A stretch of DNA of 64,000 nucleotides from Rubripirellula sp. (lineage in GTDB: Bacteria > Planctomycetota > Planctomycetia > Pirellulales > Pirellulaceae): the NCBI GenBank assembly GCA_965216875.1, contig OZ244207.1:608001-672000 (forward strand), in the 5' to 3' direction. The notes under the pieces were generated by a model. That model was given only the letters and a program-made list of their open reading frames with translations. It had not been told where the DNA came from and did not search any database. A program made the position numbers and the translations under genes. Positions 12,740-25,020 of this stretch are shown piece after piece. Every line of letters starts with the position of its first letter. The first letter of the stretch is position 1.

Positions 12740-15700
12740 ATGAACAAGCATGATCTTATGGAAGACGAGATCACTGGCTGGGCCAAGTTTTGGGCGACGT
12801 GCACGCGGCTTCTGACGACTTATCCCGATCGCCCAGCAACAATGAGTGGCGAATCTGAGGCGAAAAAGCTTGAAAGCAGGCTGAAAATGCTTGCCGAAGA
12901 AATGCTTCCACTGCTTTGTGAAAGCGAATACTGGCTTGCAGACGCATCGGTGGGCAAAGGGAACTGGGCGGCAGTTCCTTGGGTCGCGATCTTTGACTCT
13001 CGGGAGTCAAGCAGTGCTCAGAAGGGGGTCTATCCTGTAATACATTTTTCTCCTGAAGAGCCGGTTGGAATTCGAATCGGACTTGGAGTTGCCGCCACCG
13101 AGTTTAAGTCACAGGCGAATGAGAAGGCCGCAGAAGTTCATTCGGAGCTTTCAACCGAAGAACGCCAAGAACTAGAGAGCGCTGGCTTCCTGGATGTTGT
13201 CGATGGTGACGGTGTTCGAGTGGAGATGGGGACCGGCAACCTCGCGAAAAAATACGCCCGTGGAATGATACTCGAGCGTTTCGTTCCGTTTGATGAGCTA
13301 AAGGCGACACCGAGAGAGTTGACGTCCTCGCTGCAATCGCTGGTTGAGATTTACAAGGCTTGGACGGATCGAAAGCAGGATCGCTCGGGCCACTCTGCCC
13401 ACGCGTCGTTCCTAAATTTGATGCGGACCTACGCCGCAGAAAAGGTTGTATTTCTTAGCCCGAAACGCGATGCCCGGTATTACGTCAGTGATGTCAACGA
13501 CAAAGGTTGCTCTGTTGAGCGACTTGACTCAGACAAGGCTGAGCGTGTTACGGAGTCTGGCTATCAGAGTAGACGCAACTGGCTGCGGGAACAGGGTGGA
13601 GCGGCAGAGCGCGAAAAGCTTGACAATACTGTCGCGCGACACATGTGCTATCTGCAGTCCGCCGACATGTGCCTCGAATCGGACCGGCATACAGCACGGT
13701 ACTTGCCCGATCACCAGGTGGCCTGTGAACAGTTTATCTCGCATGTCATCGAGATCAGTTCTCCCACGCGATATAAGCCAGTCATACTCTCATTGGTGAT
13801 TGAAGCAGTTCGCGACGGCGATCTAACCGAGAATCGGATTACGTTCGACTGGCTACTCCCGCGGTTTATCGACCGACTTGCCAGGTTTGAACAAGAAGTC
13901 GGTGAGCAACAGCTTGCAGAGGGTTTCGCCCGAATGGCATCGACGTCTGGAGCGTTTTGGCTTCTCGCCTACGACGATCCTCATCATCAACTTTCCGAAA
14001 AGCCCGATGCCAGCCAGATTAAGCGCAGGATCTCCCATGCTCGACTCCATGAAGCGTTCTGGAACGCTATTCAGCAACCGTCTCTTCAGCAACACATACT
14101 TGACGCGATCGGCCAGAAGTGGTGGCCAGATATGACAAACATTGAGCCGAACAACATATGGCTTGTGCCAGCCTCGGATAGCGCATCACGAATTAATGCT
14201 GATCGCACCCTCGCCACGAAGATCGATAAGAACATCCCTGAGAGGTGTGGGTTATCCAGCGACGGAAATCGTTACGCCTGGGGTACACAAGAGCACAATC
14301 GCTCTGACTGGCAAAGAATGCTTCCTGGTGATTTGTGCCTGATGTACACCCAATCCCATGAAAAGCCGAGCAAAGGCTACTACTACGCCGGCCGCGTTTC
14401 AGCCACGTACGATTCGGCCGAAGTTGCAACGGAACTTTGGAATGATGAAGCATTTCGATTGCTTTTCTTTTTCGACGAGATTCACGAAGTCGATTTTTCG
14501 GTTGAAGAAGTTACCGATGCGTTAAACGAATTTGCGGACTATCAACCCAAAGCTCCATTGGGATTTCGGCGTGTTCGTGAAGATGTCGCGAATGCACTTG
14601 CCGAGAAATATGGTTCCATTTGGAAATGGTTTCAACAAAAACTTCTGCGTATCGAAGGAGGCACGATGGAGCTTTCGAAATGCGTTGGCGAATTAATAGA
14701 GGGCATCGCCGCAGAGGGTTTTGTCTTTCATCCCTGGCAGATTGCAACCTTCGTGACCGCATTGAGAACGAAGCCCTTCGTAATCCTGGCGGGTGTGTCG
14801 GGAACGGGAAAATCGAAACTGCCTGCACTAGTCGCGAAGCTGACGACGGGCAAGATCGAGCGAGTGTCAGTGCGCCCCGATTGGACTGACAGCGCTGACG
14901 TGTTGGGTTACGTCGATTTGCAAGATCAGTTTCGCCCCGGAGTTGTGCTTCAGGCGGCTCAGGCGGCTTCGAAGGATGGTGAGCATTACCATCTCTGTTT
15001 GTTGGACGAAATGAATCTCGCGCGTGTTGAACACTACTTTGCTGAAGTGCTCAGTGCGATCGAAGATCGCCATCCATCTGCCGACGGAGGATACGAAACG
15101 ACAAAATTGGTAGCCCAAGCTCTGCCAGCCGGTTTTGAACAATGGCAAGAACAGACGATACCCGCCAATTTCGGCATCGTGGGAACGGTCAATATGGACG
15201 AGAGCTCGCACGGTTTTAGCCGCAAGGTGCTTGATCGAGCGTTTACCCTCGAGCTCTCGGAAGTTGATTTGGATCTCGGGCAGTCAAGACCGTCCGAGGA
15301 CGTCGAGCCAGCTCAATGGTTGCCGTCATTTTGGCATTGTCGTGCCACTCGTATTTCCGAGTGCGATCCTGATGATCCCAAGTTTCGGTCGGCCGCCAAG
15401 AAAGCGACCGAAGCGCTTCAGCGAGTTAACGAGTGCTTGATGCATAGTCAGTTGCAAGTCGGTTACCGAACACGTGACGAGGTGATTCTGTTTCTTTTGA
15501 ATGCCGACGAACTGAGCGATTTGTTCATCACACGAGATCGCAAAACGGTCGATCCGTTGGACCTGGCATTGATGATGAAGGTGCTGCCGAGGCTGGTGGG
15601 TGGTAGCAATGCAATTCGGCGGACCATGACCGGGCTGCTGGGACTTTCGCACGGGCAATCAATGAGTGAGCCCGATGATGCCGAGACTTTGGTCGAAAAT

Positions 15701-15820
15701 TGGGTTTCCGCTGGGCGACCGGACACCGTTGATGGGGTAACTTATCCGCGAACTGCATCACGGCTGTGTTTGATGTGGGAGCGTTTGACTTACGAAGGCT
15801 ACACGTCATTCTGGTTGTAG
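12740..15820 (+). CDS. mcrB: McrB-family AAA+ GTPase with several N-terminal DNA-reader domains
   Basis: GVSGTGKS, LLDEMN, GTVNMDE; N-terminal DUF3578-like SVGKGNWAAVPWVAIFD. Confidence 0.88.
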   Translation: MNKHDLMEDEITGWAKFWATCTRLLTTYPDRPATMSGESEAKKLESRLKMLAEEMLPLLCESEYWLADASVGKGNWAAVPWVAIFDSRESSSAQKGVYPVIHFSPEEPVGIRIGLGVAATEFKSQANEKAAEVHSELSTEERQELESAGFLDVVDGDGVRVEMGTGNLAKKYARGMILERFVPFDELKATPRELTSSLQSLVEIYKAWTDRKQDRSGHSAHASFLNLMRTYAAEKVVFLSPKRDARYYVSDVNDKGCSVERLDSDKAERVTESGYQSRRNWLREQGGAAEREKLDNTVARHMCYLQSADMCLESDRHTARYLPDHQVACEQFISHVIEISSPTRYKPVILSLVIEAVRDGDLTENRITFDWLLPRFIDRLARFEQEVGEQQLAEGFARMASTSGAFWLLAYDDPHHQLSEKPDASQIKRRISHARLHEAFWNAIQQPSLQQHILDAIGQKWWPDMTNIEPNNIWLVPASDSASRINADRTLATKIDKNIPERCGLSSDGNRYAWGTQEHNRSDWQRMLPGDLCLMYTQSHEKPSKGYYYAGRVSATYDSAEVATELWNDEAFRLLFFFDEIHEVDFSVEEVTDALNEFADYQPKAPLGFRRVREDVANALAEKYGSIWKWFQQKLLRIEGGTMELSKCVGELIEGIAAEGFVFHPWQIATFVTALRTKPFVILAGVSGTGKSKLPALVAKLTTGKIERVSVRPDWTDSADVLGYVDLQDQFRPGVVLQAAQAASKDGEHYHLCLLDEMNLARVEHYFAEVLSAIEDRHPSADGGYETTKLVAQALPAGFEQWQEQTIPANFGIVGTVNMDESSHGFSRKVLDRAFTLELSEVDLDLGQSRPSEDVEPAQWLPSFWHCRATRISECDPDDPKFRSAAKKATEALQRVNECLMHSQLQVGYRTRDEVILFLLNADELSDLFITRDRKTVDPLDLALMMKVLPRLVGGSNAIRRTMTGLLGLSHGQSMSEPDDAETLVENWVSAGRPDTVDGVTYPRTASRLCLMWERLTYEGYTSFWL

Positions 15821-15822
15821 CC

Positions 15823-18309
15823 ATGAAGCATCTTTTCCGTATCGCAACCAATCGATTCACGCTGGACTGGCACCGCGTCCGCGAGACCGACCCCGCGGTT
15901 TTGGCTCAAGCGATGCCCGTGATGGGATTGTTGAGAATGGTGCCGCACGATAGCGGACTCCAGTGGCGGGATTTGATGATGCGCAGCGGTGTGCCTGACG
16001 CAACTGCCGGAGACGCCAGCGATCCGAGTGGGCCACCGTTATACGAGCAGACGGAATACCAACTTTACCTCCGAGGCGCAAACGATGGCGACACGGTGGA
16101 AATGCGGCATCGCGATCCCGTCATCACTCGCTCGCTCAACTCGCAGGAGAACGGGCGAGTCGTCCATGGATCGGTGAACTTTCGCGGCCAGATCGGTCGA
16201 AGTTTGTTCTCGGTCTATGTCAATGGAAAGCGGACGTTGGACTTCGAGGTCGAAGTTTTTCCAACAAAAATTGACTATGCTTCGGATTACCAAGACATCG
16301 TCGCCGACGTGCAGTCAATTCTGATAAATCTGGCGTACGAATACTTGCGATCGACATACCAGATGGGCAAGCTTTCCGGTGATCGCCCACCGTCGAAGCT
16401 GGAATGGCTTGTTTTGATCGAGCAGATCATCGACGAACTCGATACCGCGATGAATCATATCGCACAGCAACCGACACGAGCGCTGATCCGACGGGAGCGA
16501 ACGACGCGGCTGGAACGCATACGGCGTGTCGATTCACGGGTGCGTTCGCAGGTGCGACGCGGTCAGGGCAAGGGCTCGTTTATTCAACTAGGTGGGTTTT
16601 CTGCTCGGCAGCAAATAACGCAACGTCCGGCAGAATTGACCTTGGACACGATGGAGCATCGTTGGCTTCGAAACCAGCTTGTAGCCGTTCAACGGTCGCT
16701 AGGACAAATCGCCGCGATCTACGATTCTGAACTTGAGTTGTCTTCGCGGCGCAAGCGTACATTCGCAGGAATCGCTCGATTGGAAACACGCGTGTCGCGG
16801 CTGTTAAGTTTGGAGCCGATGAAAGAGGCCGACGGTGATCCTCCGGTCGGATTCGCGTCACTACAGCTGGTGTCGGCCCCCGGTTATCGCGAGGCCTATC
16901 GGCTACTGATGTTCCTGAAGATGGGGCTACGGTTGGAGGGTGATCTTGTTAGGCTCTCACTCAAGGACTTGGAGGTGCTGTACGAATATTGGACCTACTT
17001 GACCGTCGTTCGCATCATCCAGGATGAACATGGATCACCCGAAAATCTTGACTCTCTGTTCCGACTGCGATCATCTGGCCTGTCTGTCCTGTTGAAACAG
17101 GGGAAAACACAACAGGTTGCCTTCAAGGCAGGACACCACCGAACCATTCGAGTCAAGTATAACCCTAAGTTTGCGAACCAAGAGACGACCTTAATTCCGC
17201 AGAAGCCCGATATCTTGATTCGCTTTGAAGAGGACGGCTGGCCCTTGATTCAACTGGTAGCGGACGCCAAATACCGACTCGACGCGACGGATCAGTACCG
17301 CCAACAATTCAAATCGTTCGGTCCGCCAACAGACGCGATCAATGTCCTACATCGGTACCGCGACGCAATTTTGGAATTTGACCGCAGCGAATCACAGTCA
17401 GCTGGCTTAAAACGCTCGGTCGTACAAGCTGCCGCACTGTTCCCGATGAACCAATTAGCCGGAGACGACTTCCGCGATAGTCGGCTTTGGCAATCCTTAG
17501 AGCGGCTTGGCGTTGGTGCTATTCCTGTGTTGCCGACCAACCAAGCACTCCTAAAAGAGTGGCTGATGTCGTCGCTAAGGCAGGGCGGATGGTCGATGGC
17601 GGATAGAGCTATTGCCAATTTGGTGGACGAGCGGGCCAGGGATTGGCGTATCGCAGCGAGTGAGCCGGTCCTGGTTGGAACATTGAGGTCGCCTGGGGGA
17701 CGCGAGCATTTGGATTGGGTGCGCAGCGAACGCCGCTACTACCATCCATTCGCCAAAAAACAGCGACGCCAATACACGGTCAAGCAAGTAGCGATCTACA
17801 TTCCCACCGGATTTGAAGTGCCAAACGGAATCCGCTATGTCGCAGATGTGAAACATCTTGAAATTATTGATCGTTCCGAGATTCCGACACCATGGACGGC
17901 AAGACGCAACGAGAAGATGGTGCTGTATCATTTGGGGCCAGTTCACGAGCTGGCGCATGCTGTCGATTTCACGGTAGGCGATTCGATGCCGCCACGAGGA
18001 CGTTGGACGACGCGTCTGGGCCTGGAGCGAGCTCGGACGGTAAGCGAGATTGCTCTGGAGACAGAACCCGAATGGCGTCTTCGGGAATGGCTTCAAGCAA
18101 ACCGATTCAATCACTCCATCAAACTTGATCCACCGAAAGTACTAAGTTCCGAAAACCCGAAAGGTCGTGCGTGGTTTTGTTTCGACTCAGGGAATCGGTT
18201 GAGATTTGACGGCGCGAATCGCTTTCTAAGTCGCTCCGCAGATGGAATTGATCGCTATTACAAACTAGAAGAGCTACTTAAGCACGACCTTAATTCAGCC
18301 GGTCCGTGA
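15823..18309 (+). CDS. McrC-like DUF2357 / PD-(D/E)XK nuclease
   Basis: LYEYW, QKPD..DAKYR, INVLHRYRDAI; 2 nt after mcrB. Confidence 0.85.
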   Translation: MKHLFRIATNRFTLDWHRVRETDPAVLAQAMPVMGLLRMVPHDSGLQWRDLMMRSGVPDATAGDASDPSGPPLYEQTEYQLYLRGANDGDTVEMRHRDPVITRSLNSQENGRVVHGSVNFRGQIGRSLFSVYVNGKRTLDFEVEVFPTKIDYASDYQDIVADVQSILINLAYEYLRSTYQMGKLSGDRPPSKLEWLVLIEQIIDELDTAMNHIAQQPTRALIRRERTTRLERIRRVDSRVRSQVRRGQGKGSFIQLGGFSARQQITQRPAELTLDTMEHRWLRNQLVAVQRSLGQIAAIYDSELELSSRRKRTFAGIARLETRVSRLLSLEPMKEADGDPPVGFASLQLVSAPGYREAYRLLMFLKMGLRLEGDLVRLSLKDLEVLYEYWTYLTVVRIIQDEHGSPENLDSLFRLRSSGLSVLLKQGKTQQVAFKAGHHRTIRVKYNPKFANQETTLIPQKPDILIRFEEDGWPLIQLVADAKYRLDATDQYRQQFKSFGPPTDAINVLHRYRDAILEFDRSESQSAGLKRSVVQAAALFPMNQLAGDDFRDSRLWQSLERLGVGAIPVLPTNQALLKEWLMSSLRQGGWSMADRAIANLVDERARDWRIAASEPVLVGTLRSPGGREHLDWVRSERRYYHPFAKKQRRQYTVKQVAIYIPTGFEVPNGIRYVADVKHLEIIDRSEIPTPWTARRNEKMVLYHLGPVHELAHAVDFTVGDSMPPRGRWTTRLGLERARTVSEIALETEPEWRLREWLQANRFNHSIKLDPPKVLSSENPKGRAWFCFDSGNRLRFDGANRFLSRSADGIDRYYKLEELLKHDLNSAGP

Positions 18310-18471
18310 CCGGGCGAGGCGGGTGGATTCAAAGGACGAATCGATTGCAGGTTTAGCGAACTTGGCGGCGATGAGACGGAATTGCCTAAACGTCTAGGCT
18401 AATAGACCACCATTCAGAAAACGCCCGCGATGGCTGGCCTTTCCTGGGCGTATCGTTCTTGATGATTGGTC

Positions 18472-18795
18472 CTACAGTTCGTCTGCTTCGACCTCGCGGA
18501 CGAAGCGGTTGGTGTCGGACTCTAGGAAGCTGCTGACGACGTTGAACACGGCGTCGCTGAAGCCTCCGATGTTCAGGATGTCCTGGCGATCGGGGCTTGC
18601 GTGTTGCCGTATGGGGCGATGTCGATGCAGACCAACTTCGGATCAGCGATGCCGTGTCCGCGCTGAGTCTTCTTGAACTTGTCCCACTCGGTCATGACGC
18701 CAGTTGAACCGCCTCGGCCGAACCCGTAAGCACGTCCCGAGTTGATCCTGCTTTCGTTGTCGCTGACCAGGACGAGTTCCGCAAACGCACGCGAA
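18472..18795 (-). pseudogene. C-terminal vWA fragment of a Ro60/TROVE RNA-binding protein, with two frameshifts and the 5' part deleted
   Basis: Hand translation: [22 protein letters not shown] / [17 protein letters not shown] / [23 protein letters not shown]. Confidence 0.8.
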
Positions 18796-18799
18796 TGTC

Positions 18800-18895
18800 A
18801 CAGGGTCCGGCCCCGTATCTAGGTTTCCTGAGAAGGGGGCCGGCCGGGAGTCGAACCTGGTTAGCCATGTACTCCACTCCGGCAGTCGAATGTGT
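18800..18895 (-). ncRNA. Y-RNA-like module D, with T-arm and acceptor-like stem; 3' end apparently lost
   Basis: Shared motif TCGACTGC-N6-GGAGTACATG; CCAGG-TTCGACT-CCCGG; CCGGCCCC/GGGGCCGG stem. Confidence 0.6.
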
Positions 18896-18928
18896 TCGGT
18901 TAATGGTTGTGATGCAGTTCGAAAAAAA

Positions 18929-19074
18929 CGCGATCGACGAAGGTATGACCAGAGACTTTACGGTGCTCTGCCACTGAGCTACGGCCCGGCTATGGAAAGC
19001 AGTTGGGCCGGTGGGACTCGAACCCACGACACCCGGCTCCTGAAGCATGTACTCCGAATCGGCAGTCGATCGTG
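18929..19074 (-). ncRNA. YrlA-like Y RNA (module C) with a circularly permuted tRNA domain
   Basis: Terminal stem CGATCGAC/GTCGATCG plus U-run; T-arm GTGGGTTCGAGTCCCAC precedes a loop-closed acceptor stem and D-arm TAGCTCAGTGGCAGAGC; next to the Ro60 remnant. Confidence 0.8.
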
Positions 19075-19082
19075 TGCGATTG

Positions 19083-19448
19083 TTATTTTCGTTTCTTCTT
19101 CAAAGTCTTCCGCAACCGTTTCCACACCACGTGACCACTTTCCGGGTCAAGCCGGACGAGTTGGTTCTGGCGAGTGTCGAAGGTTTTGGTGCCGCCTTTC
19201 GGTCGCTTGGTGTAAACGAACGGCAGGCATACGGCGACGACTTTGAAAGGTTGACCCGCGTCACTGGGCATGTAACGGATCCGAACCGGCTCGTCCGCTG
19301 GAAGTGTGCTGCCAGAGCAGCTCCAGAGGAACGAAGGCAATTCGACGATCTCGTTCAAGACCGTGACGTAGTCTCCTTGTTTGATGTCTTCTCCGGCGAC
19401 TCGTGCTGCCACGGTCGTCTGGTAGTTGGTTTCAGTTGTAGTTTCCAT
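19083..19448 (-). CDS. Hypothetical protein with basic C-terminus inside the Y-RNA cluster
   Basis: 121-aa ORF co-oriented with the operon. Confidence 0.7.
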   Translation of the reverse strand: METTTETNYQTTVAARVAGEDIKQGDYVTVLNEIVELPSFLWSCSGSTLPADEPVRIRYMPSDAGQPFKVVAVCLPFVYTKRPKGGTKTFDTRQNQLVRLDPESGHVVWKRLRKTLKKKRK

Positions 19449-19450
19449 GG

Positions 19451-19587
19451 TTTCATATCGCTTGATGAAAGTAAGTTTTGAGTGTGCAAAGATTCCTCGA
19501 CGGACGCTCGATTACTCGGCGCCCGTGTTCGTAATGACGAAGAAATGAAATTGCACACGCATGGTTACTCTCACGAGCGATATGAAA
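19451..19587 (-). promoter_or_regulatory. Long nested stem-loop directly upstream of the 19448 start codon
   Basis: 12-bp TTTCATATCGCT/AGCGATATGAAA, 8-bp GTGTGCAA/TTGCACAC and inner hairpins. Confidence 0.55.
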
Positions 19588-19606
19588 AACGGCTGACGAA
19601 GCGTAT

Positions 19607-19689
19607 AGAAGTTTGAAGTGGGAAGTTCGAAATTTGAAACGGACTGCCATCCCTTTCTTCACACTTCACCATTCACTTTTGGAACTTCT
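19607..19689. repeat. Heptamer-periodic imperfect inverted repeat (GAAGT type)
   Basis: GAAGTTT GAAGTGG GAAGTTC GAAATTT ... CTTCACA CTTCACC ATTCACT. Confidence 0.6.
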
Positions 19690-19708
19690 CTCGTTGCCGT
19701 GTTTTGTA

Positions 19709-19929
19709 AAAGCCCGACGAAGTGGTCGTCGAGATCGCTGTTCACTGCCATCACTCGCGTGAGTGGAAGCAAACGCCGCTCTTACCGATCGCTTTCACGA
19801 TTGGCAGTGGGCACACACGATTGCATCTACGAGAGATGGAAACCGTGCTCACTACCTTCGGTTGCCCGAAGGATCGCTACCTTAGGACCGTCATAGTTAC
19901 GATGTAATCCCAACAGGCAGTCGAGCTTT
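19709..19929 (-). ncRNA. Y-RNA-like module B carrying a 23S rRNA H69-H71 sequence and multiple hairpins
   Basis: Terminal stem AAAGCTCGAC/GTCGGGCTTT, shared 5' motif, then CGTAACTATGACGGTCCTAAGGTAGCGA; GCAA and GAAA tetraloop hairpins. Confidence 0.7.
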
Positions 19930-19941
19930 GTGCTGGTTTGC

Positions 19942-20014
19942 GACGGATCGACGAGGTAACAGCTCAGATGGGACACATTTTCAAGATGTAATCCGAGCCT
20001 GCAGTCGATTCGTC
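19942..20014 (-). ncRNA. Minimal Y-RNA-like module A
   Basis: GACGAATCGAC/GTCGATCCGTC stem, shared motif TCGACTGC-N6-GGATTACATC, GCTCGGAT/ATCTGAGC stem. Confidence 0.65.
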
Positions 20015-20016
20015 AG

Positions 20017-20087
20017 AAACGCTGGTGGGAGTCGAACCCACTTAGACCGGGTTGCAGCCGGTTGCCTGGCCATCTGGCTCCAGCGTG
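20017..20087 (-). tRNA. tRNA-Cys(GCA)
   Basis: Anticodon arm ACCGG-CTGCAAC-CCGGT. Confidence 0.85.
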
Positions 20088-20095
20088 TTCTCAAG

Positions 20096-20167
20096 CGTCC
20101 TCGCCAGGAATCGAACCTGGTCTTCGACCTTCGCAGAGTCGCGTGCTGTCCGGCACACTCCGAGAAC
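20096..20167 (-). tRNA. tRNA-Arg(GCG)
   Basis: CGACT-CTGCGAA-GGTCG. Confidence 0.8.
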
Positions 20168-20192
20168 ATGGATGGCTAATCAAAGAGCCGAG

Positions 20193-20264
20193 TAACCCGC
20201 CCAGGAATCGAACCTGGTCCGACAGTTTCGAAGACTGTCATGCTATCCAGCACACCCGCGAGTC
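20193..20264 (-). tRNA. tRNA-Arg(TCG)
   Basis: ACAGT-CTTCGAA-ACTGT. Confidence 0.85.
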
Positions 20265-20289
20265 ATGTTGATTGTTAGTTAGTCACAAG

Positions 20290-20363
20290 AGCCGACGACT
20301 GGGTTTGCACCAGCATGAGCCGCTTTACAAAAGCGGTGCCTTTCTGCATCGAGCCACGTCGGC
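20290..20363 (-). tRNA. tRNA-Thr(TGT), atypical T-loop
   Basis: CCGCT-TTTGTAA-AGCGG; T-loop TGCAAAC. Confidence 0.7.
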
Positions 20364-20380
20364 ATGGGTTGCTGCATCAG

Positions 20381-20452
20381 TAGCCCGACCAGGAATCGAA
20401 TCCGGAACTTCTGGTTAGAAGCCAGAGATGATGTCCGTTTCACCATCGAGCC
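20381..20452 (-). tRNA. tRNA-Arg(TCT)
   Basis: TCTGG-CTTCTAA-CCAGA. Confidence 0.8.
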
Positions 20453-20465
20453 GTTTGCAAGCAAG

Positions 20466-20551
20466 CGGAAGGCGAGGGAGTCGAACCCTCATCACCCGAA
20501 GGTGGCACGCGTTAGCAGTGCGGCCCGGCAAACCGTATCCGGCTGCCTTCC
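20466..20551 (-). tRNA. tRNA-Ser(GCT)
   Basis: Loop CTGCTAA, long variable arm, G73. Confidence 0.8.
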
Positions 20552-20563
20552 GAAATCGTTGAG

Positions 20564-20636
20564 TGGACCGGAAGGGAATCGAACCCTTCTCACCGATCTT
20601 GCAAGGATCAGTCGCCCCCTTGGAACATGCCAGCCC
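20564..20636 (-). tRNA. tRNA-Ala(TGC)
   Basis: TGATC-CTTGCAA-GATCG; G3:U70. Confidence 0.85.
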
Positions 20637-20647
20637 ATTTCACTCAG

Positions 20648-20718
20648 AGGTCCGTCCGGGAATTGAACCCGGTCTTCGTCCATACCACAGACGCGTGCTG
20701 CCGCAACACTTACAGACC
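20648..20718 (-). tRNA. tRNA-Thr(GGT)
   Basis: CGTCT-GTGGTAT-GGACG. Confidence 0.8.
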
Positions 20719-20729
20719 ATTCGTTTCAG

Positions 20730-20802
20730 TGATCGCGGATGGAATCGAACCATCGATCTCCTGCATGTCACGCAGGCGTCTTCGCCGCTGGACCACGCGA
20801 CC
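20730..20802 (-). tRNA. tRNA-Val(GAC)
   Basis: CCTGC-GTGACAT-GCAGG. Confidence 0.85.
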
Positions 20803-20816
20803 GTAGTCTTGATGAG

Positions 20817-20892
20817 TAGTCGAGATAGGAGTCGAACCTACAAAATCACAAGCCTCTCGTGCTTGCCGCTATGCCTGTTTGCGTACTCGACC
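20817..20892 (-). tRNA. tRNA-Leu(GAG), short variable region, C33
   Basis: CAAGC-ACGAGAG-GCTTG. Confidence 0.7.
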
Positions 20893-20899
20893 GAGAAAG

Positions 20900-20968
20900 T
20901 AGCGGATCCGGGGGTCGCACCCGACGGTCCTGGCTTATGAGGCATGGCTGAGCACTGGCCCATCCGCG
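20900..20968 (-). tRNA. tRNA(CAT), initiator-like or degenerate
   Basis: Loop CTCATAA; unpaired 1:72; shortened D-arm; weak anticodon stem. Confidence 0.55.
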
Positions 20969-20972
20969 TTGT

Positions 20973-21415
20973 GTTAGCTTGTTAGCAATTAGCCTGTTAG
21001 CGACTAGCTTTCTATTTCTATTGGGGCACACTCATGCGAGATCACAAAAATCTTCGAGCGTTCGAACTGGCCGACGAAGTTGCTTTGCTCACTTACAAGT
21101 TCACGCGGAGTTTTCCGCGTGAAGAACAATTCGGGTTGACATCCCAAATGCGTCGAGCTGCCGTATCAGTTCCATCGAATATCGTCGAAGGCTGTGGTCG
21201 TCACACGGAAGCGGAGTTCCTCCGATTTCTCGACGTTGCATACGGTTCACTCAGGGAACTTGAGTACCAAACCTCGCTTGCAGTTCGCTTGGAATTCGTC
21301 TCGAACCACGGGGATTTCACTGCCAAGCTAACTGAAGCCTCCAAAGTCCTAGGCTCACTGATCCGCTCCATCCGAAAAAGCTAATTGCTAACTCGCTAGC
21401 TGCTAATCGGCTAGC
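20973..21415. mobile_element. Four-helix-bundle cassette bounded by GTTAGC/GCTAAC periodic inverted repeats
   Basis: Left arm 20973-21008, right arm 21380-21415; lies between two tRNA(CAT) genes. Confidence 0.6.
21034..21384 (+). CDS. Four helix bundle protein (23S rRNA IVS protein / Avd-like family)
   Basis: FPREEQFGLTSQMRRAAVSVPSNIVEG..FLDVAYGSLRELEYQ; antisense to the array. Confidence 0.93.
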   Translation: MRDHKNLRAFELADEVALLTYKFTRSFPREEQFGLTSQMRRAAVSVPSNIVEGCGRHTEAEFLRFLDVAYGSLRELEYQTSLAVRLEFVSNHGDFTAKLTEASKVLGSLIRSIRKS

Positions 21416-21419
21416 TCAG

Positions 21420-21489
21420 TTGCAGGTCTCGGTATCGAGCCGAGCACACCGACCTCATGAAAGTCAGTTGGACACCTGTCGCACCTGCA
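21420..21489 (-). tRNA. tRNA(CAT) Met/Ile2, shortened D-arm
   Basis: TGACT-TTCATGA-GGTCG. Confidence 0.6.
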
Positions 21490-21498
21490 ATGTTGAAG

Positions 21499-21582
21499 TA
21501 GCCAAGGCGAGGGTTGAACTCGCACGCCACGATGGGCACGACATTCTGAGTGTCGCGTGTCTACCGGTTCCACCACTTGGCT
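21499..21582 (-). tRNA. tRNA-Leu(CAG), long variable arm
   Basis: CGACA-CTCAGAA-TGTCG. Confidence 0.88.
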
Positions 21583-21597
21583 GTGTTTGAATCGAAG

Positions 21598-21671
21598 TAC
21601 TGCGGGAGGGAGTCGAACCCTCAAACACGATCGTTTGAAATTCGCCGCTTTGCCGGTTTGCGTACCACAGC
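21598..21671 (-). tRNA. tRNA-Leu(CAA), short variable region
   Basis: Loop TTCAAAC; imperfect anticodon stem. Confidence 0.7.
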
Positions 21672-21683
21672 ATGTTGATTGAG

Positions 21684-21755
21684 TACTGAGGGCGGGAGTC
21701 GAACCCGCAAGCACTTGTTCCTAAGACAAGCGGCTCGCCGTTGGCCTACCTCAGC
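21684..21755 (-). tRNA. tRNA-Leu(TAG), short variable region
   Basis: CTTGT-CTTAGGA-ACAAG. Confidence 0.8.
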
Positions 21756-21767
21756 GTTTGCGAAAAG

Positions 21768-21838
21768 TGGAGCACCGGGGAATCGAACCCCGATTTTCTA
21801 CGTGCAAAACAGACGTCTTCCCGTTGGACGAGCGCCCC
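21768..21838 (-). tRNA. tRNA-Ala(TGC), second copy
   Basis: Loop TTTGCAC; G3:U70. Confidence 0.8.
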
Positions 21839-21864
21839 ATATCGTTTCGTTAACGTTGCAAAAG

Positions 21865-21938
21865 TGCCCAGAGCAGGAATCGAACCTGCAAACATCCGGG
21901 TTTAAGCCGGACCGCTCTGCCGATTGGCGTATCTAGGC
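21865..21938 (-). tRNA. tRNA-Leu(TAA), short variable region
   Basis: TCCGG-CTTAAAC-CCGGA. Confidence 0.8.
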
Positions 21939-22002
21939 GTCGTGTGTTGGCCGCCGTGGGAAGAACGCGATTGCTCACGCCCTTCCTTTGGCTGCCAACG
22001 TG

Positions 22003-22262
22003 TTATGCTCGGAGTCGCGGCGTGCTGTCGCCCGTTGACTTGCGGTGGTTTCGGATTGCCTTGCGGTAGTTCGGAACACTGTCGCCTTCGACGATCACGT
22101 CGCCGACCGTTTCGACAACCCAGCCATCGACCCAGCGGTCGTCGCTATCTTTCAGCTTCAGTATTTCGCGAATTGCGTCGGGATATACGAAGTTGTGACG
22201 ACGCTAGCACCAGCGACGATGCGTCTCATCGCACATTGCGCGTACTTCACGTTTCTGGTCAT
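22003..22262 (-). pseudogene. Frameshifted small hypothetical gene inside the array
   Basis: AAGGAG RBS; MTRNVKYAQCAMRR..TTSYIPTQFAK / LKLKDSDDRWVDGWVVETVG..RKAIRNHRKSTGDS. Confidence 0.6.
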
Positions 22263-22314
22263 CGTCGTCTCCTTGTCAGTTGGTAAGAATAATCATTGTT
22301 TGCGAAGGTCGAAG

Positions 22315-22386
22315 TAGTCCAGGATGGAATCGAACCATCTTTTCCTGTTTGTAAGACAGGCGTCGTAGCCGTTGGACCACAGGACT
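22315..22386 (-). tRNA. tRNA-Val(TAC)
   Basis: CCTGT-CTTACAA-ACAGG. Confidence 0.85.
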
Positions 22387-22410
22387 TTTTCAAAATGTCG
22401 ATCCGGAGAG

Positions 22411-22481
22411 CACGTCCCCAAGGATTTGAAACCTGACTAACTGGTTTGGAATCAGCAGTGCTACCGTTACACCAGAGACGT
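22411..22481 (-). tRNA. tRNA-Trp(CCA)
   Basis: Loop TTCCAAA; imperfect T-stem. Confidence 0.75.
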
Positions 22482-22498
22482 GGATGTGTTTTCAAAAG

Positions 22499-22583
22499 TG
22501 GGAACGCAAGGAATCGCACCTCTCGCCGGCTACCACACAATTAGAGGCAGAAGGGTTACAACCTCCCGTGTGGAAACGCTCCC
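22499..22583 (-). tRNA. tRNA-Tyr(GTA)-like, lacking a D-arm, with enlarged variable region
   Basis: GGGAGCG/CGTTCCC acceptor; GGAGG-TTGTAAC-CCTTC. Confidence 0.6.
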
Positions 22584-22601
22584 ATGTATCAATCGAACAA
22601 G

Positions 22602-22685
22602 CGGAAGCCGTGGGACTCGAACCCACAACGGTGATTAGCCGCAGCTGTTTTCAAGACAGTGTCCTCATCCGGCCGGGTGACTTCC
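22602..22685 (-). tRNA. tRNA-Ser(TGA)
   Basis: Loop CTTGAAA, long variable arm. Confidence 0.8.
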
Positions 22686-22706
22686 GTAGTGCGTCATCAA
22701 ACGCAG

Positions 22707-22781
22707 TGACGTGAGCGGGAAACGAACCCGCGGACTCCTGGATGAAAACCAGGCAATTCTGCCATCAGAATCTACCACGCC
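22707..22781 (-). tRNA. tRNA-Glu(TTC)
   Basis: CCTGG-TTTTCAT-CCAGG. Confidence 0.75.
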
Positions 22782-22806
22782 GTTTGGTTGCTTCGATCGA
22801 AGCGAG

Positions 22807-22878
22807 TACCGCATAGGAGTTTCGATCTCCTTCCTGCTGCCTGAGAAGCAGCCGACCTAGCCAGTAGTCGAATGCGGC
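22807..22878 (-). tRNA. tRNA-Glu(CTC)
   Basis: GCTGC-TTCTCAG-GCAGC; T-loop ATCGAAA. Confidence 0.75.
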
Positions 22879-22892
22879 TTGTTTGCAAAAAG

Positions 22893-22965
22893 CGATGGCA
22901 ACGGGAGTCGAACCCGCAGCGACTTGATAGACAATCAAGCTTCCTTCCGAGAGGAACTTGCCACC
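22893..22965 (-). tRNA. tRNA-Asp(GTC)
   Basis: CTTGA-TTGTCTA-TCAAG. Confidence 0.75.
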
Positions 22966-22980
22966 GAAAATGTTCGCGAG

Positions 22981-23056
22981 GGTGACTAACCGGAATTGAA
23001 CCGGCGACAAACTCATTCACAGTGAGTCTCTGGAAACCAACACCAGATCTAGCCAC
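22981..23056 (-). tRNA. tRNA-His(GTG)
   Basis: ACTCA-CTGTGAA-TGAGT; C73. Confidence 0.78.
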
Positions 23057-23058
23057 AG

Positions 23059-23129
23059 TCGGGTATCAGTGAGTCGCACACTGTCCATGCGTGGTCCCAA
23101 ACCACACCGCTTACTCCAAGCTATACCCG
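23059..23129 (-). tRNA. tRNA-Pro(TGG)
   Basis: Loop TTTGGGA; C1-G72, A73; T-loop TGCGACT. Confidence 0.7.
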
Positions 23130-23141
23130 AAACAAAAATAG

Positions 23142-23216
23142 CACCGGAGACTGGAATCGAACCAATGGACTCCTCGTTCAGAGCGAGGTGCAGCGACCAG
23201 CAACTGCTACTCCGGC
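23142..23216 (-). tRNA. tRNA-Gln(CTG)
   Basis: CCTCG-CTCTGAA-CGAGG. Confidence 0.8.
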
Positions 23217-23238
23217 GTTTTAATCAAATCGTCAATAG

Positions 23239-23306
23239 CACTCCGTCCGGGAATTGAACCCGATCTGCGGGCTTCAAAGGCCCACGTCGCGACTACGCGC
23301 CGGAGA
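23239..23306 (-). tRNA. tRNA-Gln(TTG), shortened D-arm
   Basis: TGGGC-CTTTGAA-GCCCG. Confidence 0.65.
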
Positions 23307-23324
23307 GAGTTTTCCCGATGAAAG

Positions 23325-23396
23325 AGTGTCCTGCGGGAGTCGAACCCGCCTATCTGAGTTGGAAGCCCAGCACCTTTGCCGCTCGGCCAAGGACAC
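23325..23396 (-). tRNA. tRNA-Gly(TCC)
   Basis: CTGGG-CTTCCAA-CTCAG. Confidence 0.85.
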
Positions 23397-23403
23397 GATG
23401 GAT

Positions 23404-23478
23404 GCGGAAGTTTGAAGGGCGAGGTGTGAAACGAAGCGAGCTATTCCACACTTCTGGCTTCACCCTTCAAACTTCGCG
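23404..23478. repeat. Heptamer-periodic inverted repeat spacer (GAAG type)
   Basis: GAAGTTTGAAGGG ... CCCTTCAAACTTC. Confidence 0.6.
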
Positions 23479-23481
23479 AAG

Positions 23482-23553
23482 CTCCGGCGGAAGGACTCGA
23501 ACCTTCACTCGTCTCCTTAACAGGGAGCCGCCTTACCATTGGGCCACACCGGA
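23482..23553 (-). tRNA. tRNA-Asn(GTT)
   Basis: CTCC-CTGTTAA-GGAG. Confidence 0.85.
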
Positions 23554-23569
23554 TTGTTAACTCATCAAG

Positions 23570-23643
23570 TCAGGATGGCTGGATTTGAACCAGCGATCTC
23601 GTGTTTCCGGAACACGCGGAGTGCCAGACTTTCCCACATCCTG
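23570..23643 (-). tRNA. tRNA-Pro(CGG)
   Basis: CGTGT-TCCGGAA-ACACG. Confidence 0.8.
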
Positions 23644-23651
23644 ATTTGCAA

Positions 23652-23722
23652 AGCGCCCAGTGGGAGTCGAACCCACACTTCCGCCATGGCAAGGCAGTAG
23701 GCTGCCACTACATCATGGGCGC
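23652..23722 (-). tRNA. tRNA-Gly(GCC)
   Basis: CTGCC-TTGCCAT-GGCGG. Confidence 0.82.
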
Positions 23723-23757
23723 AGATTTGCATCACAACCAAATTGTCAAAGATCGGA

Positions 23758-23830
23758 TCAGGCTTCAGGTGCCAGGCTTTAGACGTCAGGTTGTATTCCT
23801 GAAGTCTGACTCCTGATTGCTGAAGTCTGC
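23758..23830. repeat. Heptamer-periodic inverted repeat spacer (TCAGG type)
   Basis: TCAGGCT TCAGGTG CCAGGCT TTAGACG TCAGG ... CCTGAAG TCTGACT CCTGA. Confidence 0.6.
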
Positions 23831-23835
23831 TTTAG

Positions 23836-23906
23836 AGCACCGAGCCGGAATTGAACCCGCATCACCTCGTTACGACGGAGGTATCTTGCCGTTAGAAGAT
23901 CAGTGC
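23836..23906 (-). tRNA. tRNA-Thr(CGT)
   Basis: Loop GTCGTAA; one stem mismatch. Confidence 0.7.
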
Positions 23907-23913
23907 TGGAGTA

Positions 23914-23995
23914 GCGGATTAGCCTTTAGCTGTTTAGCTGATTAGGTTTCTTCTTTGTCTTTCCTAATCAGCTAACTCGCTAACAGCTAACCTGC
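23914..23995. repeat. Heptamer-periodic inverted repeat spacer (TTAGC type)
   Basis: TTAGC repeated ... GCTAAC repeated; same unit as the four-helix-bundle flanks. Confidence 0.65.
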
Positions 23996-24002
23996 TCTTT
24001 AG

Positions 24003-24075
24003 TGGGACCGGTGAGAATCGAACTCACATCGTTCGGTTTAAGAGACCGATGCATTACCTTGTCTGCCACAATCCC
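24003..24075 (-). tRNA. tRNA-Lys(CTT)
   Basis: TCGGT-CTCTTAA-ACCGA. Confidence 0.87.
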
Positions 24076-24095
24076 ATGTGTTTTGTCTTGTCCGG

Positions 24096-24168
24096 TCGGC
24101 GCGGAAGGAATCGAACCTTCAACCCTCGTCTTATGAGGACGCCGCCCTTACCACTGAGCTGCACGCCG
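24096..24168 (-). tRNA. tRNA(CAT) Met or Ile2
   Basis: CGTC-CTCATAA-GACG; canonical D and T arms. Confidence 0.85.
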
Positions 24169-24195
24169 GAGGCGCCAATGGCGCGGCGCCGTAAG

Positions 24196-24268
24196 TGGGG
24201 CCGGAGAGATTCGAACTCTCGCCGAACGGCTTAAAAGACCGTCATGCTGCCTGTTACACCACAACCCC
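24196..24268 (-). tRNA. tRNA-Lys(TTT)
   Basis: ACGGT-CTTTTAA-GCCGT. Confidence 0.87.
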
Positions 24269-24332
24269 ATGATTGGTCGGGCGTAGGCGTTTCAATCGCA
24301 ATGCAAGAAGCATGTCGGTTTCTCTTTCGTGT

Positions 24333-24391
24333 TATCGAACTCAGCGCGACCCGCGTATCAGGCGGATTTGGGCGACCAGCCCTCGACTACC
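24333..24391 (-). pseudogene. 3'-truncated tRNA-Ile(GAT)
   Basis: TCCGC-CTGATAC-GCGGG; breaks after GTTCGAT, with no 3' T-stem or acceptor strand. Confidence 0.7.
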
Positions 24392-24408
24392 GTGTTGTTG
24401 TAAAAAAG

Positions 24409-24509
24409 TCGGACACCTCGGAGTCGAACCGCCCGTCGCGGAGCGACCCACAAATGAACGCAGTCTCCTGCTCCCAAAGCAGGCGTGCTTCCATCTGCAC
24501 CTGTATCCG
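24409..24509 (-). tRNA. tRNA-Pro(TGG) with an insertion of about 30 nt in the T-stem
   Basis: CCTGC-TTTGGGA-GCAGG; removing 24432-24461 restores CTCGG-TTCGACT-CCGAG. Confidence 0.65.
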
Positions 24510-24566
24510 ATGTTGTTTGTGGTGTTCGCTGCAGCCGATTCCGTCGGCGCATATCTTCTTTGTCAG

Positions 24567-24638
24567 TGGGCCGGGAGGCGCTCGAATCCTCGTCTGCGGT
24601 GCTTCAAACCGCCGCTAGACCGTCTCAGCTACCAGCCC
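24567..24638 (-). tRNA. tRNA-Phe(GAA)
   Basis: GCGGT-TTGAAGC-ACCGC. Confidence 0.78.
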
Positions 24639-24640
24639 GC

Positions 24641-24740
24641 GTTAGCTTGTTAGCAGTTAGCTTGTTAGCGGTTAGCTTGTTAGCGGTTAGCCAGAAAGTG
24701 CTTTCCTAACTCGTTAATCGGCTAATGGCTAATCAGCTAA
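24641..24740. repeat. GTTAGC periodic inverted repeat
   Basis: Seven GTTAGC units, then five CTAA-type units. Confidence 0.75.
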
Positions 24741-24776
24741 AACAAAAGGCTCGATGCCTGCGTGACACCGAGCCTT
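24739..24776 (-). terminator. Intrinsic terminator / attenuator hairpin, leader copy 2
   Basis: AAGGCTCGGTGTC-loop-GGCATCGAGCCTT-TTGTTTT. Confidence 0.75.
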
Positions 24777-24807
24777 CATGTAGAAAGCAGTTCGCTTGAT
24801 GCGAGTG

Positions 24808-24966
24808 TCACGTGAGCAATCTTGTGCCTAAGGAATACAGTGCCGGGATATTGCCAGGCTGGAACGTATTGGCGCTGCGCTCATTGTCGCTGGGCCAATC
24901 GCTACCGCCGAAGGCATTCCCTTCGTGTATCCGCTGGAGTCGATTTGATTGCTGTTTGGTAGACAT
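24808..24966 (-). CDS. Putative 52-aa leader peptide, copy 2 (MSTKQQSNRLQRIHEGNAFGGSDW...RLLT)
   Basis: Homologous to 177-335; stop codon lies within the antiterminator arm CGTGACAC. Confidence 0.7.
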   Translation of the reverse strand: MSTKQQSNRLQRIHEGNAFGGSDWPSDNERSANTFQPGNIPALYSLGTRLLT

Positions 24967-25020
24967 CGAACTGAAAAGGCTCTTACTCGCTTCTCTGGGT
25001 GTGACTTGTGTTCGGGGTTA

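Follow-up and report, generated by a model that had tools for sequence, protein, structure and literature searches.

Probable tandem Y RNA genes with tRNA-like and 23S rRNA-like inserts between a tRNA array and a Ro60 remnant in Rubripirellula

Introduction

Four short segments of a planctomycete chromosome begin with the same 5′ motif and then diverge in content, which raises the question of what kind of element they are and why one framework should carry such different inserts. The segments lie in a stretch of 64,000 nucleotides (positions 608,001 to 672,000 of contig OZ244207.1, assembly GCA_965216875.1; referred to here as the window) from Rubripirellula sp., whose genome consists of one contig of 8,264,643 bases and is 99% complete. 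An initial annotation, made from the letters alone, read them as noncoding RNA modules with interchangeable inserts on a scaffold that binds the protein Ro60. We label the modules A to D in transcript order along the minus strand. Our analysis suggests that the region very probably consists of tandem Y RNA genes at the 3′ end of a supernumerary tRNA array, just upstream of a former Ro60 gene, in which one scaffold carries interchangeable mimics of translation RNAs.

Y RNAs are noncoding partners of Ro60 (Rsr), a ring-shaped RNA-binding protein. In the working model for the bacterial ones, Ro60 is bound by the Y RNA stem, and the effector part either links the ribonucleoprotein (RNP) to further factors or controls access to Ro60 (Chen et al. 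2014, PMC4201824). YrlA-like RNAs have been reported within 4 kb of Ro60 on the same strand in 254 bacterial species and 22 phages, with a 5′ motif of GNCGAAN0-1G, and a supplementary table of that paper lists them beside Ro60 in Pirellula staleyi, Planctomyces brasiliensis, Rhodopirellula baltica, and R. maiorica (PMC4201824). The YrlA of M. smegmatis is cut by RNase P and given CCA, that of Salmonella is modified by TruB and DusA, and BLASTN orthologues of the shorter YrlB are described only in Salmonella enterica serovars (PMC4201824). Long tRNA arrays (L-arrays) are defined as at least 20 tRNA genes at a density of at least 2 per kb (PMC4758250); they are reported in Planctomycetes, and those of Anabaena are induced together with rtcB by translational stress (PMC8421152).

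Results

Four modules share a two-helix scaffold

The modules and the two features that flank them are as follows.

20016..24638, minus strand: array of 31 tRNA genes (ARAGORN, Rfam tRNA)
19942..20014, minus strand: module A, a probable short YrlB-like Y RNA (helices S1 and S2, apical hairpin 19990-19974; Rfam YrlB)
19709..19929, minus strand: module B, the scaffold with a 23S rRNA-like insert (25/26 identity to the genome's own 23S; fold z-score)
18928..19075, minus strand: module C, a probable YrlA-like Y RNA with a permuted tRNA (Rfam YrlA alignment and helices)
18782..18893, minus strand: module D, a probable truncated Y RNA of the T-arm/acceptor ("minihelix") type (identity to intact relatives)
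18472..18792, minus strand: Ro60 (Rsr) pseudogene remnant, residues ~440-548 of 548 (blastx, DNA identity to relatives)

The pattern TCGACTGCNNNNNNGGAKTACAT has four matches in the window, without mismatches and all on the minus strand (19986-20008 in A, 19902-19924 in B, 19047-19069 in C, and 18867-18889 in D), exactly the number first reported. The combination TCGACTGC-N6-GGAKTACAT occurred in 0 of 100 dinucleotide shuffles of the window, and a regular-expression scan of all 8,264,643 bases of the genome returned only the four window copies. The 5′ motif reads AUCGACUG in A and C, CUCGACUG in B, and UUCGACUG in D.

A terminal stem whose outer pairs differ between modules but stay complementary had been proposed for A, B, and C, and all three indeed close in this way with a helix of 10 to 11 bp (S1). 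It is formed by 20014-20004 and 19952-19942 in A (10 of 11 pairs, with one A.C mismatch), by 19929-19920 and 19718-19709 in B (10 of 10 pairs, one G.U included), and by 19075-19065 and 18938-18928 in C (10 of 11 pairs, again with one A.C mismatch), and only its inner CGAC/GUCG is invariant. The N6, taken at first for a spacer between two halves of the motif, is instead part of a second, covarying helix (S2), in which N6 and GGAK provide the 5′ strand and MUCU plus N4, close to the 3′ end, the partner. S2 joins 19999-19991 to 19969-19961 in A (9 pairs), 19914-19907 to 19735-19728 in B (8 pairs), and 19060-19052 to 18954-18947 in C (8 pairs and one bulge). The parts of the scaffold are S1, an asymmetric internal loop (5′ UGCC versus 3′ CA-N3-CUU), S2 (N4-5 and GGAK with MUCU and N4), and a conserved UACAU. 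G.U pairs, such as those in S1 of B and in S2 of A, B, and C, turn into A.C mismatches if read on the opposite strand; they make sense on one strand only, indicating that the constraint acts on the minus-strand RNA.

The window motifs do not match the GNCGAAN0-1G criterion of Chen et al. 2014, from which they deviate at the first and sixth positions. That they differ from a GNCGAA-type consensus was therefore a correct observation as far as the letters go; the motif nevertheless reads as a lineage variant of the published one and not as a separate motif, because a relative from another family (G025) carries GCGAAUGCC ahead of the same N5-GGAGUACAU, giving the canonical GCGAAUG and then CC-N5-GGAGUACAU. 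Moreover, the Rfam consensus of YrlB (Salmonella type) already contains CGaAUGC-N6-GGAUUACAU, so that most of the "new" motif already belongs to a known Y RNA.

The modules accompany Ro60 across planctomycetes

An alignment of six planctomycete Ro60 proteins led to 318 relatives in species-representative genomes, and the best 80 of these 318 loci were analyzed. Modules were located with a regular expression for the 5′ motif, followed by the closest TCGT with a flank able to pair with that of the 5′ motif. Between one and eight modules lie upstream of Ro60 in 78 of the 80 loci, and the two loci that have none offer <200 nt of upstream sequence each. Together with the window, these 78 loci yielded 304 modules, all on the Ro60 strand; the 5′ motif expression alone matched 370 times on this strand and 0 times on the opposite one. 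The motif is thus clearly enriched near genes for Ro60, the TROVE-domain protein.

By crude sequence rules, the modules fell into full tRNA-like (90), T-arm-only (81), short (66), rRNA-like (33), and other (34) classes, with 4 of the "other" modules being further rRNA-like variants. The usual order is short, rRNA-like, tRNA-like, T-arm-only, other, and Ro60, with which the order A, B, C, D, and remnant in the window agrees. A signature of the rRNA-like class is present as one site on the Ro60 strand in 38 of the 80 loci (0 on the opposite strand), including 8 loci with a subtype that carries the loop of 23S rRNA helix 69 (H69).

Two wider searches were made. Of 400 other genomes sampled evenly from the phylum, 3 contained the rRNA-like signature, all belonging to the class of the window genome, while the reversed control gave 1. 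A motif-first search of the whole genomes of 40 relatives found the exact motif in 8 (reversed control, 0), and 11 of the 15 matches were followed, at a distance of at most 2.5 kb, by a TROVE gene on their strand. The other four belong to a stand-alone pair in G002, to G019 (on a contig apart from the two TROVE contigs), to G016 (which has a truncated Ro60), and to G025, where a Ro60 gene overlooked by the Pfam scan sits just upstream of two modules having the canonical motif.

Viral sequences were scanned with the pattern CGACTGCC-N4-5-GGAGTACAT. Twelve of the 14 loci found were discarded as chance matches in coding DNA, with 9 coming from copies of a single phage gene. The two real loci, both from IMG/VR, are L119 (35 kb, with 32 tRNA genes, 5 motifs, and a Ro60 that is 70% identical) and L126 (28.7 kb), in which a short module comes right after a tRNA gene and no Ro60 lies within 6 kb. 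Phage-like elements may be vehicles of the island, the contigs being only classed as viral.

Both scaffold helices covary

Covariation in S1 was assessed with 171 unique modules that have a single downstream TCGT, so that pairing did not choose the 3′ end. Positions 2 to 8 were paired at frequencies of.98,.98,.96,.89,.76,.66, and.53, compared to shuffle means of.79,.86,.59,.39,.47,.34, and.34, and up to four Watson-Crick pair types were present per position. For S2, the four outer positions beyond the GGAK:MUCU anchor had 3.42 of 4 pairs, versus 2.71 after permutation (maximum, 2.86). The anchored modules comprise GGAG/CUCU (69), GGAC/GUCU (26), GGAU/AUCU (11), and GGAA/UUCU (9), counts that are no test on their own because pairing was required for anchoring.

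In a MAFFT alignment of 36 short modules (alignment A4), 91.1% of the S1 and S2 cells are paired (72.8% when shuffled), and 158 cells changed on both sides, against 49.4 in shuffled alignments (0/500) and 11 to 29 in slid controls. At its column pair 24:53, the K position, CG and UA occur 15 times each, and 18 sequences changed on both sides. For the common subtype of the rRNA-like modules (21 sequences), RNAalifold predicted 10 helices with 50 pairs; here, 96.5% of the cells pair versus 89.4% when shuffled, and 25 pairs changed on both sides versus 12.4 (0/500) in shuffled and 4 to 9 in slid controls. Hence S1 and S2 both covary.

The modules follow a supernumerary tRNA array

The array upstream of A packs 31 minus-strand tRNA genes into 4.6 kb, and its last gene, tRNA-Cys (20016-20087), ends 1 to 2 nt before A. 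The genome has 99 tRNA genes in total, and 28 of the 30 array anticodons recur among the other 68, which makes the array supernumerary. It has the features of an L-array (at least 20 tRNA genes, at least 2 per kb, same orientation, supernumerary), and its DNA is 76 to 96% identical to that of arrays upstream of Ro60 in other Pirellulaceae, other genera included. Among the 40 Ro60 loci with at least 6 kb of upstream sequence, 29 have at least three same-strand tRNA genes there, 24 have at least 10 (up to 36), and 7 have none. Of the upstream tRNA genes of all loci taken together, 743 share the strand of Ro60 and 1 does not. A tRNA-Cys gene precedes the first detected module by <60 nt in 19 loci, the distance mostly being 9 to 11 nt.

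A TTTT run follows the closing stem in 151 of the 304 modules, compared to 3% of random windows. Scanning 18300-25400 for sigma-70 promoters gave 0 sites (shuffle mean, 3.3), and a terminator-like hairpin (24777-24745) is located ahead of the array. Metatranscriptome contigs of near relatives (four studies, 88 to 99% alike) cover C, D, the open reading frame (ORF) described below, A, and tRNA-Cys, with 3 runs bridging the junction between tRNA-Cys and A; most of B (19736-19899) has no cover in the four runs.

Two further features were observed in or near such arrays. An ORF at 21034-21384 on the plus strand, antisense inside the tRNA array, belongs to the "23S rRNA-intervening sequence protein" family (PF05635, E 8e-31); homologues occur in or beside tRNA arrays at 12 of the 80 loci, and a second copy in this genome (593675-594022) lies amid other tRNA clusters. 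At one locus (L050:796-1154), a tmRNA gene (150 bits) lies upstream of the tRNA array and the Y RNA modules that follow it.

Ro60 was lost by a deletion that also truncated module D

The TROVE domain has no match anywhere in the genome. A tblastn search of the genome with planctomycete Ro60 found only the remnant; the same query detects a 42%-identical Ro60 from another family at E 3e-109, so that a divergent intact copy in this genome would have shown up. The remnant is spread over two frames, with one frameshift near 18580, and blastx against the Ro60 of G002, from the same genus, gave identities of 69% (residues 440-509) and 67% (residues 501-548). Its DNA is 93% identical to the 3′ end of the Ro60 gene at locus L057.

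Positions 18792-18416 of the window are 87% identical to the 3′ end of the Ro60 gene of Stieleria sedimenti (L043), and positions 18901-18782 share 94% identity with the first 120 nt (L043:7557-7675) of an intact module that precedes this gene. Since the flanks match the 5′ end of an intact module and the 3′ end of a Ro60 gene, a single deletion of ~1.65 kb, with a junction at ~18782-18792, removed the 3′ end of D together with the first ~439 codons of Ro60. All four modules lie within 1.6 kb upstream of the remnant on its strand, consistent with the published rule (within 4 kb, same strand) of Chen et al. 2014. Judged by their sequences, A, B, and C are orphaned yet still intact. A shares 98.6% identity with the module that comes first at a Stieleria locus where Ro60 is intact, B 96.0% with a module of L054, which also has an intact Ro60, and C 89.9% with its counterpart at an intact locus; because of these identities and the single frameshift in the remnant, the loss of Ro60 looks recent, and the surviving modules are therefore weak evidence of a role independent of Ro60.

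A second, independent truncation is found in G016 (L028, contig 81, ~5100-5460, minus strand; genome 99% complete), in which Ro60 is reduced to residues 489-548 immediately behind a T-arm-only module, and the upstream modules look intact. Because intact modules persist where Ro60 was lost twice, some of them may work without Ro60.

The most serious alternative takes this further and sees the modules as structured RNAs of the tRNA array that act independently of Ro60, as processing or termination punctuation or as tRNA and rRNA decoys, with the proximity of Ro60 due to a common island that spreads. It would account for the position of modules directly after tRNA-Cys, for the T-run at the end of about half of them, for the intact modules in the two genomes with a truncated Ro60, for the G002 pair located on a contig apart from that genome's sole TROVE match, and for the IMG/VR contig with a short module after a tRNA gene and no Ro60 within 6 kb. 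It fits poorly with the 7 of 40 loci that have modules beside Ro60 but no tRNA gene in at least 6 kb upstream, and with the presence of modules in 78 of 80 Ro60 loci. The scaffold is, in addition, homologous to the Ro60-binding part of YrlA and YrlB (PMC4201824), and both truncations look recent (a remnant 93% identical to an intact gene, with a single frameshift). We consider this alternative unlikely and retain the reading of the modules as Y RNAs that belong to Ro60.

Modules A, C, and D carry a hairpin, a permuted tRNA, and a truncated minihelix

The insert of A is a single hairpin. When compared to Rfam, A is nearest to YrlB (RF02565; 30.5 bits, E 0.0011) and C to YrlA (RF02553; 43.5 bits, E 6.7e-8, model positions 1-114), both below the gathering cut-offs of 97 and 69 bits, respectively. 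C contains a T arm (19027-19011), a loop-closed acceptor-like stem (19010-19004 with 18988-18982), and a D arm (18979-18965), which is the YrlA layout of these three parts in permuted order inside the closing stem; the T and D arms are conserved in the cmscan alignment. A run of seven Ts (18928-18922) lies 3′ of C.

D keeps the 5′ strands of S1 (18893-18885) and S2 (18880-18872) and has lost the 3′ strands of both. Its insert consists of a T-arm-like hairpin (18860-18844) and an acceptor-like stem (18843-18836 with 18814-18807), and an intact counterpart also exists on contig 3 of G002. The D region folds no better than shuffled sequences (z −1.15), as expected for a truncated module. Of the inserts first assigned to the four modules, the hairpin in A, the rRNA mimic with several hairpins in B, and the permuted tRNA in C stand; the partial tRNA of D is a product of the deletion and not a natural form.

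A further insert class has 11 members, each in the last module immediately before Ro60 (L053:3698, L056:915, L062:7862, L081:7861, and 7 more), with a conserved GGAAG(U/C)GGGAGCUUCC core. No RNA to which this class is alike was identified, and a genome site with 17 nt in common (position 3875309) was put down to chance, as it lies inside an ORF and matches no Rfam family.

Module B copies the H69-H71 region of 23S rRNA

A stretch of 26 nt in B (19899-19874) is identical at 25 positions to the genome's own 23S rRNA gene, which Rfam confirms as large-subunit (LSU) rRNA. According to the LSU structure line, it covers the loop of H69 and the strand that follows. The single difference changes the closing pair of H69 from C-G to G-C, so that the hairpin is preserved, and from this pair on, B agrees with the Rfam bacterial LSU consensus at 27 of 28 positions. 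B has an H69-like hairpin (19902-19888) and, positioned as H71 is in rRNA, an H71-like hairpin with a GCAA loop (19872-19855); further hairpins lie beyond the 23S-like stretch, the rRNA-type module has a UAACUAUGA loop, and the fold z-score of B is −3.36. In the ribosome, the H69-H71 region of the large subunit forms bridges to the small subunit, with the 30S subunit contacting H69 and H71.

Profile hidden Markov models (HMMs) of the two rRNA-like subtypes were searched against the whole 8.26-Mb genome, the one for the common subtype having been built without the window sequence. Apart from B itself, the best match was the 23S gene for both the H69-loop subtype (E 0.0059) and the common subtype (E 0.024); in the latter case, the alignment is collinear, leading from the H69 3′ strand via the junction strand and the hairpin of H71 to UGAAAGGCG. 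The LSU_rRNA_bacteria model (RF02541) gave 0 matches at E up to 10 within 18300-20100, against 229 bits, over 241 nt, for the true 23S segment; only ~26 to 60 nt of B are alike. The insert of B is a miniature copy of the 23S region and not a fragment of an rRNA gene.

H69 forms a full local hairpin in the subtype of the window. The common subtype pairs CGGUC, which corresponds to the 3′ strand of rRNA H69, with a GRCCG farther downstream; as judged from this arrangement, the stem of H69 is retained with its loop end opened and joined to the scaffold, a permutation like that of the tRNA-like modules. The minimum-energy fold of B alone, which pairs the 5′ scaffold strand with the rRNA-like stretch, was set aside, since the consensus of 21 relatives supports S1 and S2. 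The pairing used in that fold involves a conserved scaffold loop, CUGCC(U), at 19916-19921, complementary to (A)GGUAG of the rRNA-like part at 19876-19881; the same complementarity is seen in the common subtype and could be an alternative conformer or chance.

A second alternative holds that only the 23S-like stretch of B matters, as DNA, being either a captured rDNA fragment or a copy of a homing-endonuclease target for gene conversion or the spread of the island. This part of 23S rDNA presumably contains a homing-endonuclease target site. The identical stretch is short (26 nt) and comes from one of the most conserved parts of 23S rDNA, both of which this alternative would explain, and long tRNA arrays have been reported beside homing endonuclease genes (PMC8421152). 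Against it, the stretch is embedded in a covarying RNA structure, with three of the five CGGUC:GRCCG pairs and three of the five pairs of the H71-like hairpin changed on both sides, and the closing pair of H69 is compensated. The signature, moreover, keeps to the Ro60 strand in 38 of 80 loci and is never on the opposite strand, and the Rfam LSU model has no match in B. We regard a role as DNA as very unlikely and keep to an RNA mimic.

The idea that the repeats are not RNA genes but operators, attachment sites, REP-like repeats, or other DNA elements deserves still less credit: a short conserved motif found four times within 1.2 kb and an S1 inverted repeat in each module, as in protein-binding palindromes, would suit it, but the strand bias is complete (370 versus 0), the S1 arms are 50 to 220 nt apart, compensatory changes with G.U pairs fit one strand only, and the inserts fold as tRNA-like and rRNA-like structures.

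A conserved ORF and other neighboring genes

19083..19448, minus strand: ORF of 121 amino acids (ORF121) between B and C, conserved inside Y RNA arrays

Homologues of ORF121 were detected by tblastn in 31 of the 80 Ro60 loci, always between modules and on the same strand; it is single copy in this genome. It matches no Pfam or NCBIfam family and has no Foldseek match at E up to 0.001. The AF2 model (pLDDT 75) predicts a small beta-barrel with a basic C-terminal helix, and the best VIA-align hit (Z 6.8, to SH3/KOW-like folds) is within the range of unspecific matches. The product may be a protein partner of the RNAs.

On the plus strand, a McrBC-like restriction pair (12740-18309) converges on the Ro60 remnant and encodes proteins of 1,026 amino acids (MrcB_N, AAA_5) and 847 amino acids (DUF2357, PDDEXK_7); ORFs of similar size lie beyond Ro60 in L096 and L038. 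In G016, the truncated Ro60 is followed by a gene for a Tpt1/KptA-like RNA 2′-phosphotransferase, a family confirmed on the homologue in L095 (PF01885). Tpt1/KptA was rejected as a conserved partner, as it stands beside Ro60 in only 3 to 4 of the 80 loci, and the genes downstream of Ro60 show no synteny among six loci.

Discussion

The question of what the four modules are is best answered by reading them as Y RNA genes. The scaffold had been proposed to be the Ro60-binding module, and it has proved to be a Y RNA stem that goes with Ro60, given that YrlA and YrlB are the nearest Rfam families, that modules occur in 78 of 80 Ro60 loci, and that the stem covaries. Binding of Ro60 itself would follow from homology with YrlA and YrlB. 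The variable part would then be the effector module: a permuted tRNA in C, a T-arm/acceptor minihelix in D, and the 23S H69-H71 region in B, with only a hairpin in A.

Several observations weigh against this interpretation. The modules are apparently intact in this genome and in G016 despite the truncated Ro60, and G002 has a stand-alone pair of an rRNA-like and a minihelix module (L022, contig 3, ~8300-8600, minus strand), the only TROVE match of that genome being on another contig. The 5′ motif departs from the literal GNCGAAN0-1G, and neither the window nor 8 further loci (141 kb) contain a match to YrlA or YrlB at the Rfam gathering level. The number of pairs changed on both sides in alignment A4 is weakly distinctive (15 versus 12.6 when shuffled, 26/500), and kinship of the sequences inflates all shuffle-based covariation figures, although the slid controls and the many pair types are independent of kinship. 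The E-values that link the rRNA-like profiles to the 23S gene are modest (0.006 to 0.024). Finally, the metatranscriptome cover is the only RNA evidence and could include DNA carry-over, so that it gives a weak hint of expression in relatives. Beside these points we note that the G002 pair has no tRNA array and that its minihelix module shares the N6 of module D.

Parts of this arrangement resemble known systems. The parts of C follow one another as in YrlA (5′ Ro60-type stem, T arm, loop-closed acceptor-like stem, D arm, and 3′ stem), and C shares the upstream same-strand position. It differs in its score (43.5 versus 69 bits), in having AUCGACUG in place of GNCGAAN0-1G, and in two additions absent from the Rfam consensus of YrlA, the S2 helix and UACAU, which separate the stem from the tRNA-like part; YrlA is also a single gene, whereas C belongs to a series of modules. 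Module A and the short class share with YrlB, the short Salmonella Y RNA, the layout, the GGAUUACAU element, and the pairing of N6 with a 3′ partner, whereas A scores 30.5 versus 97 bits and the planctomycete look-alike is the usual first module after tRNA-Cys. Since planctomycete YrlA-like RNAs beside Ro60 have already been published, C and its class are known in kind.

The Yrn1/Rsr/PNPase complex (RYPER) of Deinococcus radiodurans follows the same working model, with a Ro60-binding stem and a tethering effector, and there, too, Ro60 is linked to 23S rRNA; according to the account in PMC4201824, that link runs through Rsr free of Y RNA, which acts in 23S maturation on the rRNA, whereas here the Y RNA itself copies part of 23S. 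The window array resembles the published L-arrays in its density, its common strand, its mostly redundant content, and its similarity across genera (PMC8421152, PMC4758250). These two papers do not contain the terms Ro60, Y RNA, TROVE, or Rsr, whereas the window array runs straight into Y RNA genes and Ro60.

Mimicry of rRNA was reportedly described by Meyer in 2018 for the leader RNAs of ribosomal-protein genes. Like those, B is a short RNA copying a part of rRNA, in their case one that binds protein. They are cis-regulatory mRNA leaders that bind a ribosomal protein; the mimic described here, in contrast, is the predicted effector domain of a stand-alone Y RNA scaffold and copies H69-H71. 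In the searchable literature, we found no Y RNA with an rRNA-like effector, no multiclass array on one scaffold, and no connection of tRNA arrays with Ro60. Of the new elements, the strongest is the mimic of 23S H69-H71, found in 38 of 80 Ro60 loci.

How such modules might work can be sketched. They would be cotranscribed with the tRNA array, their 5′ ends set by 3′ processing of the tRNA and their 3′ ends by U-runs. Ro60 would bind the scaffold, and the mimic domain would tether the Ro60 RNP to factors that recognize tRNA or this part of 23S, or would compete with them. By analogy, one would expect the minihelix and tRNA modules to encounter tRNA enzymes and the H69-H71 copy to encounter recognizers of that 23S part, for which we take the candidates to be the H69 pseudouridine synthase and methyltransferase, assembly or splitting factors, and the 30S subunit.

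It is a reasonable guess that the whole island serves translational stress or RNA damage, because the tRNA arrays of Anabaena are induced by translational stress with rtcB (PMC8421152). Taken together, Planctomycetia may have an undescribed class of Y RNA with a miniature, partly circularly permuted 23S H69-71 effector. With the tRNA and minihelix Y RNAs, this class would make up an interchangeable set of mimics on a Ro60-binding scaffold, transcribed as the tail of a horizontally spread tRNA array, that directs Ro60 to tRNA and rRNA enzymes or free 30S subunits, or decoys them, in translational stress or RNA damage, and some of its members may act without Ro60. We offer this complete picture tentatively, rating its chances as slightly short of even.

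The loci bear on the biology of Ro60 in several ways. No module reaches a Rfam gathering score, and annotation that relies on those cut-offs will miss them. Known bacterial Y RNAs combine a Ro60-binding stem with one effector, either a PNPase-binding loop or a tRNA mimic. These loci provide a natural series on one scaffold, consisting of a hairpin, a tRNA, the top half of a tRNA, a copy of 23S H69-H71, and at least one further insert, which makes the question of what the tRNA mimic binds directly testable. They tie Ro60 to the ribosome through the Y RNA itself, and Ro60 and its Y RNAs to long supernumerary tRNA arrays.

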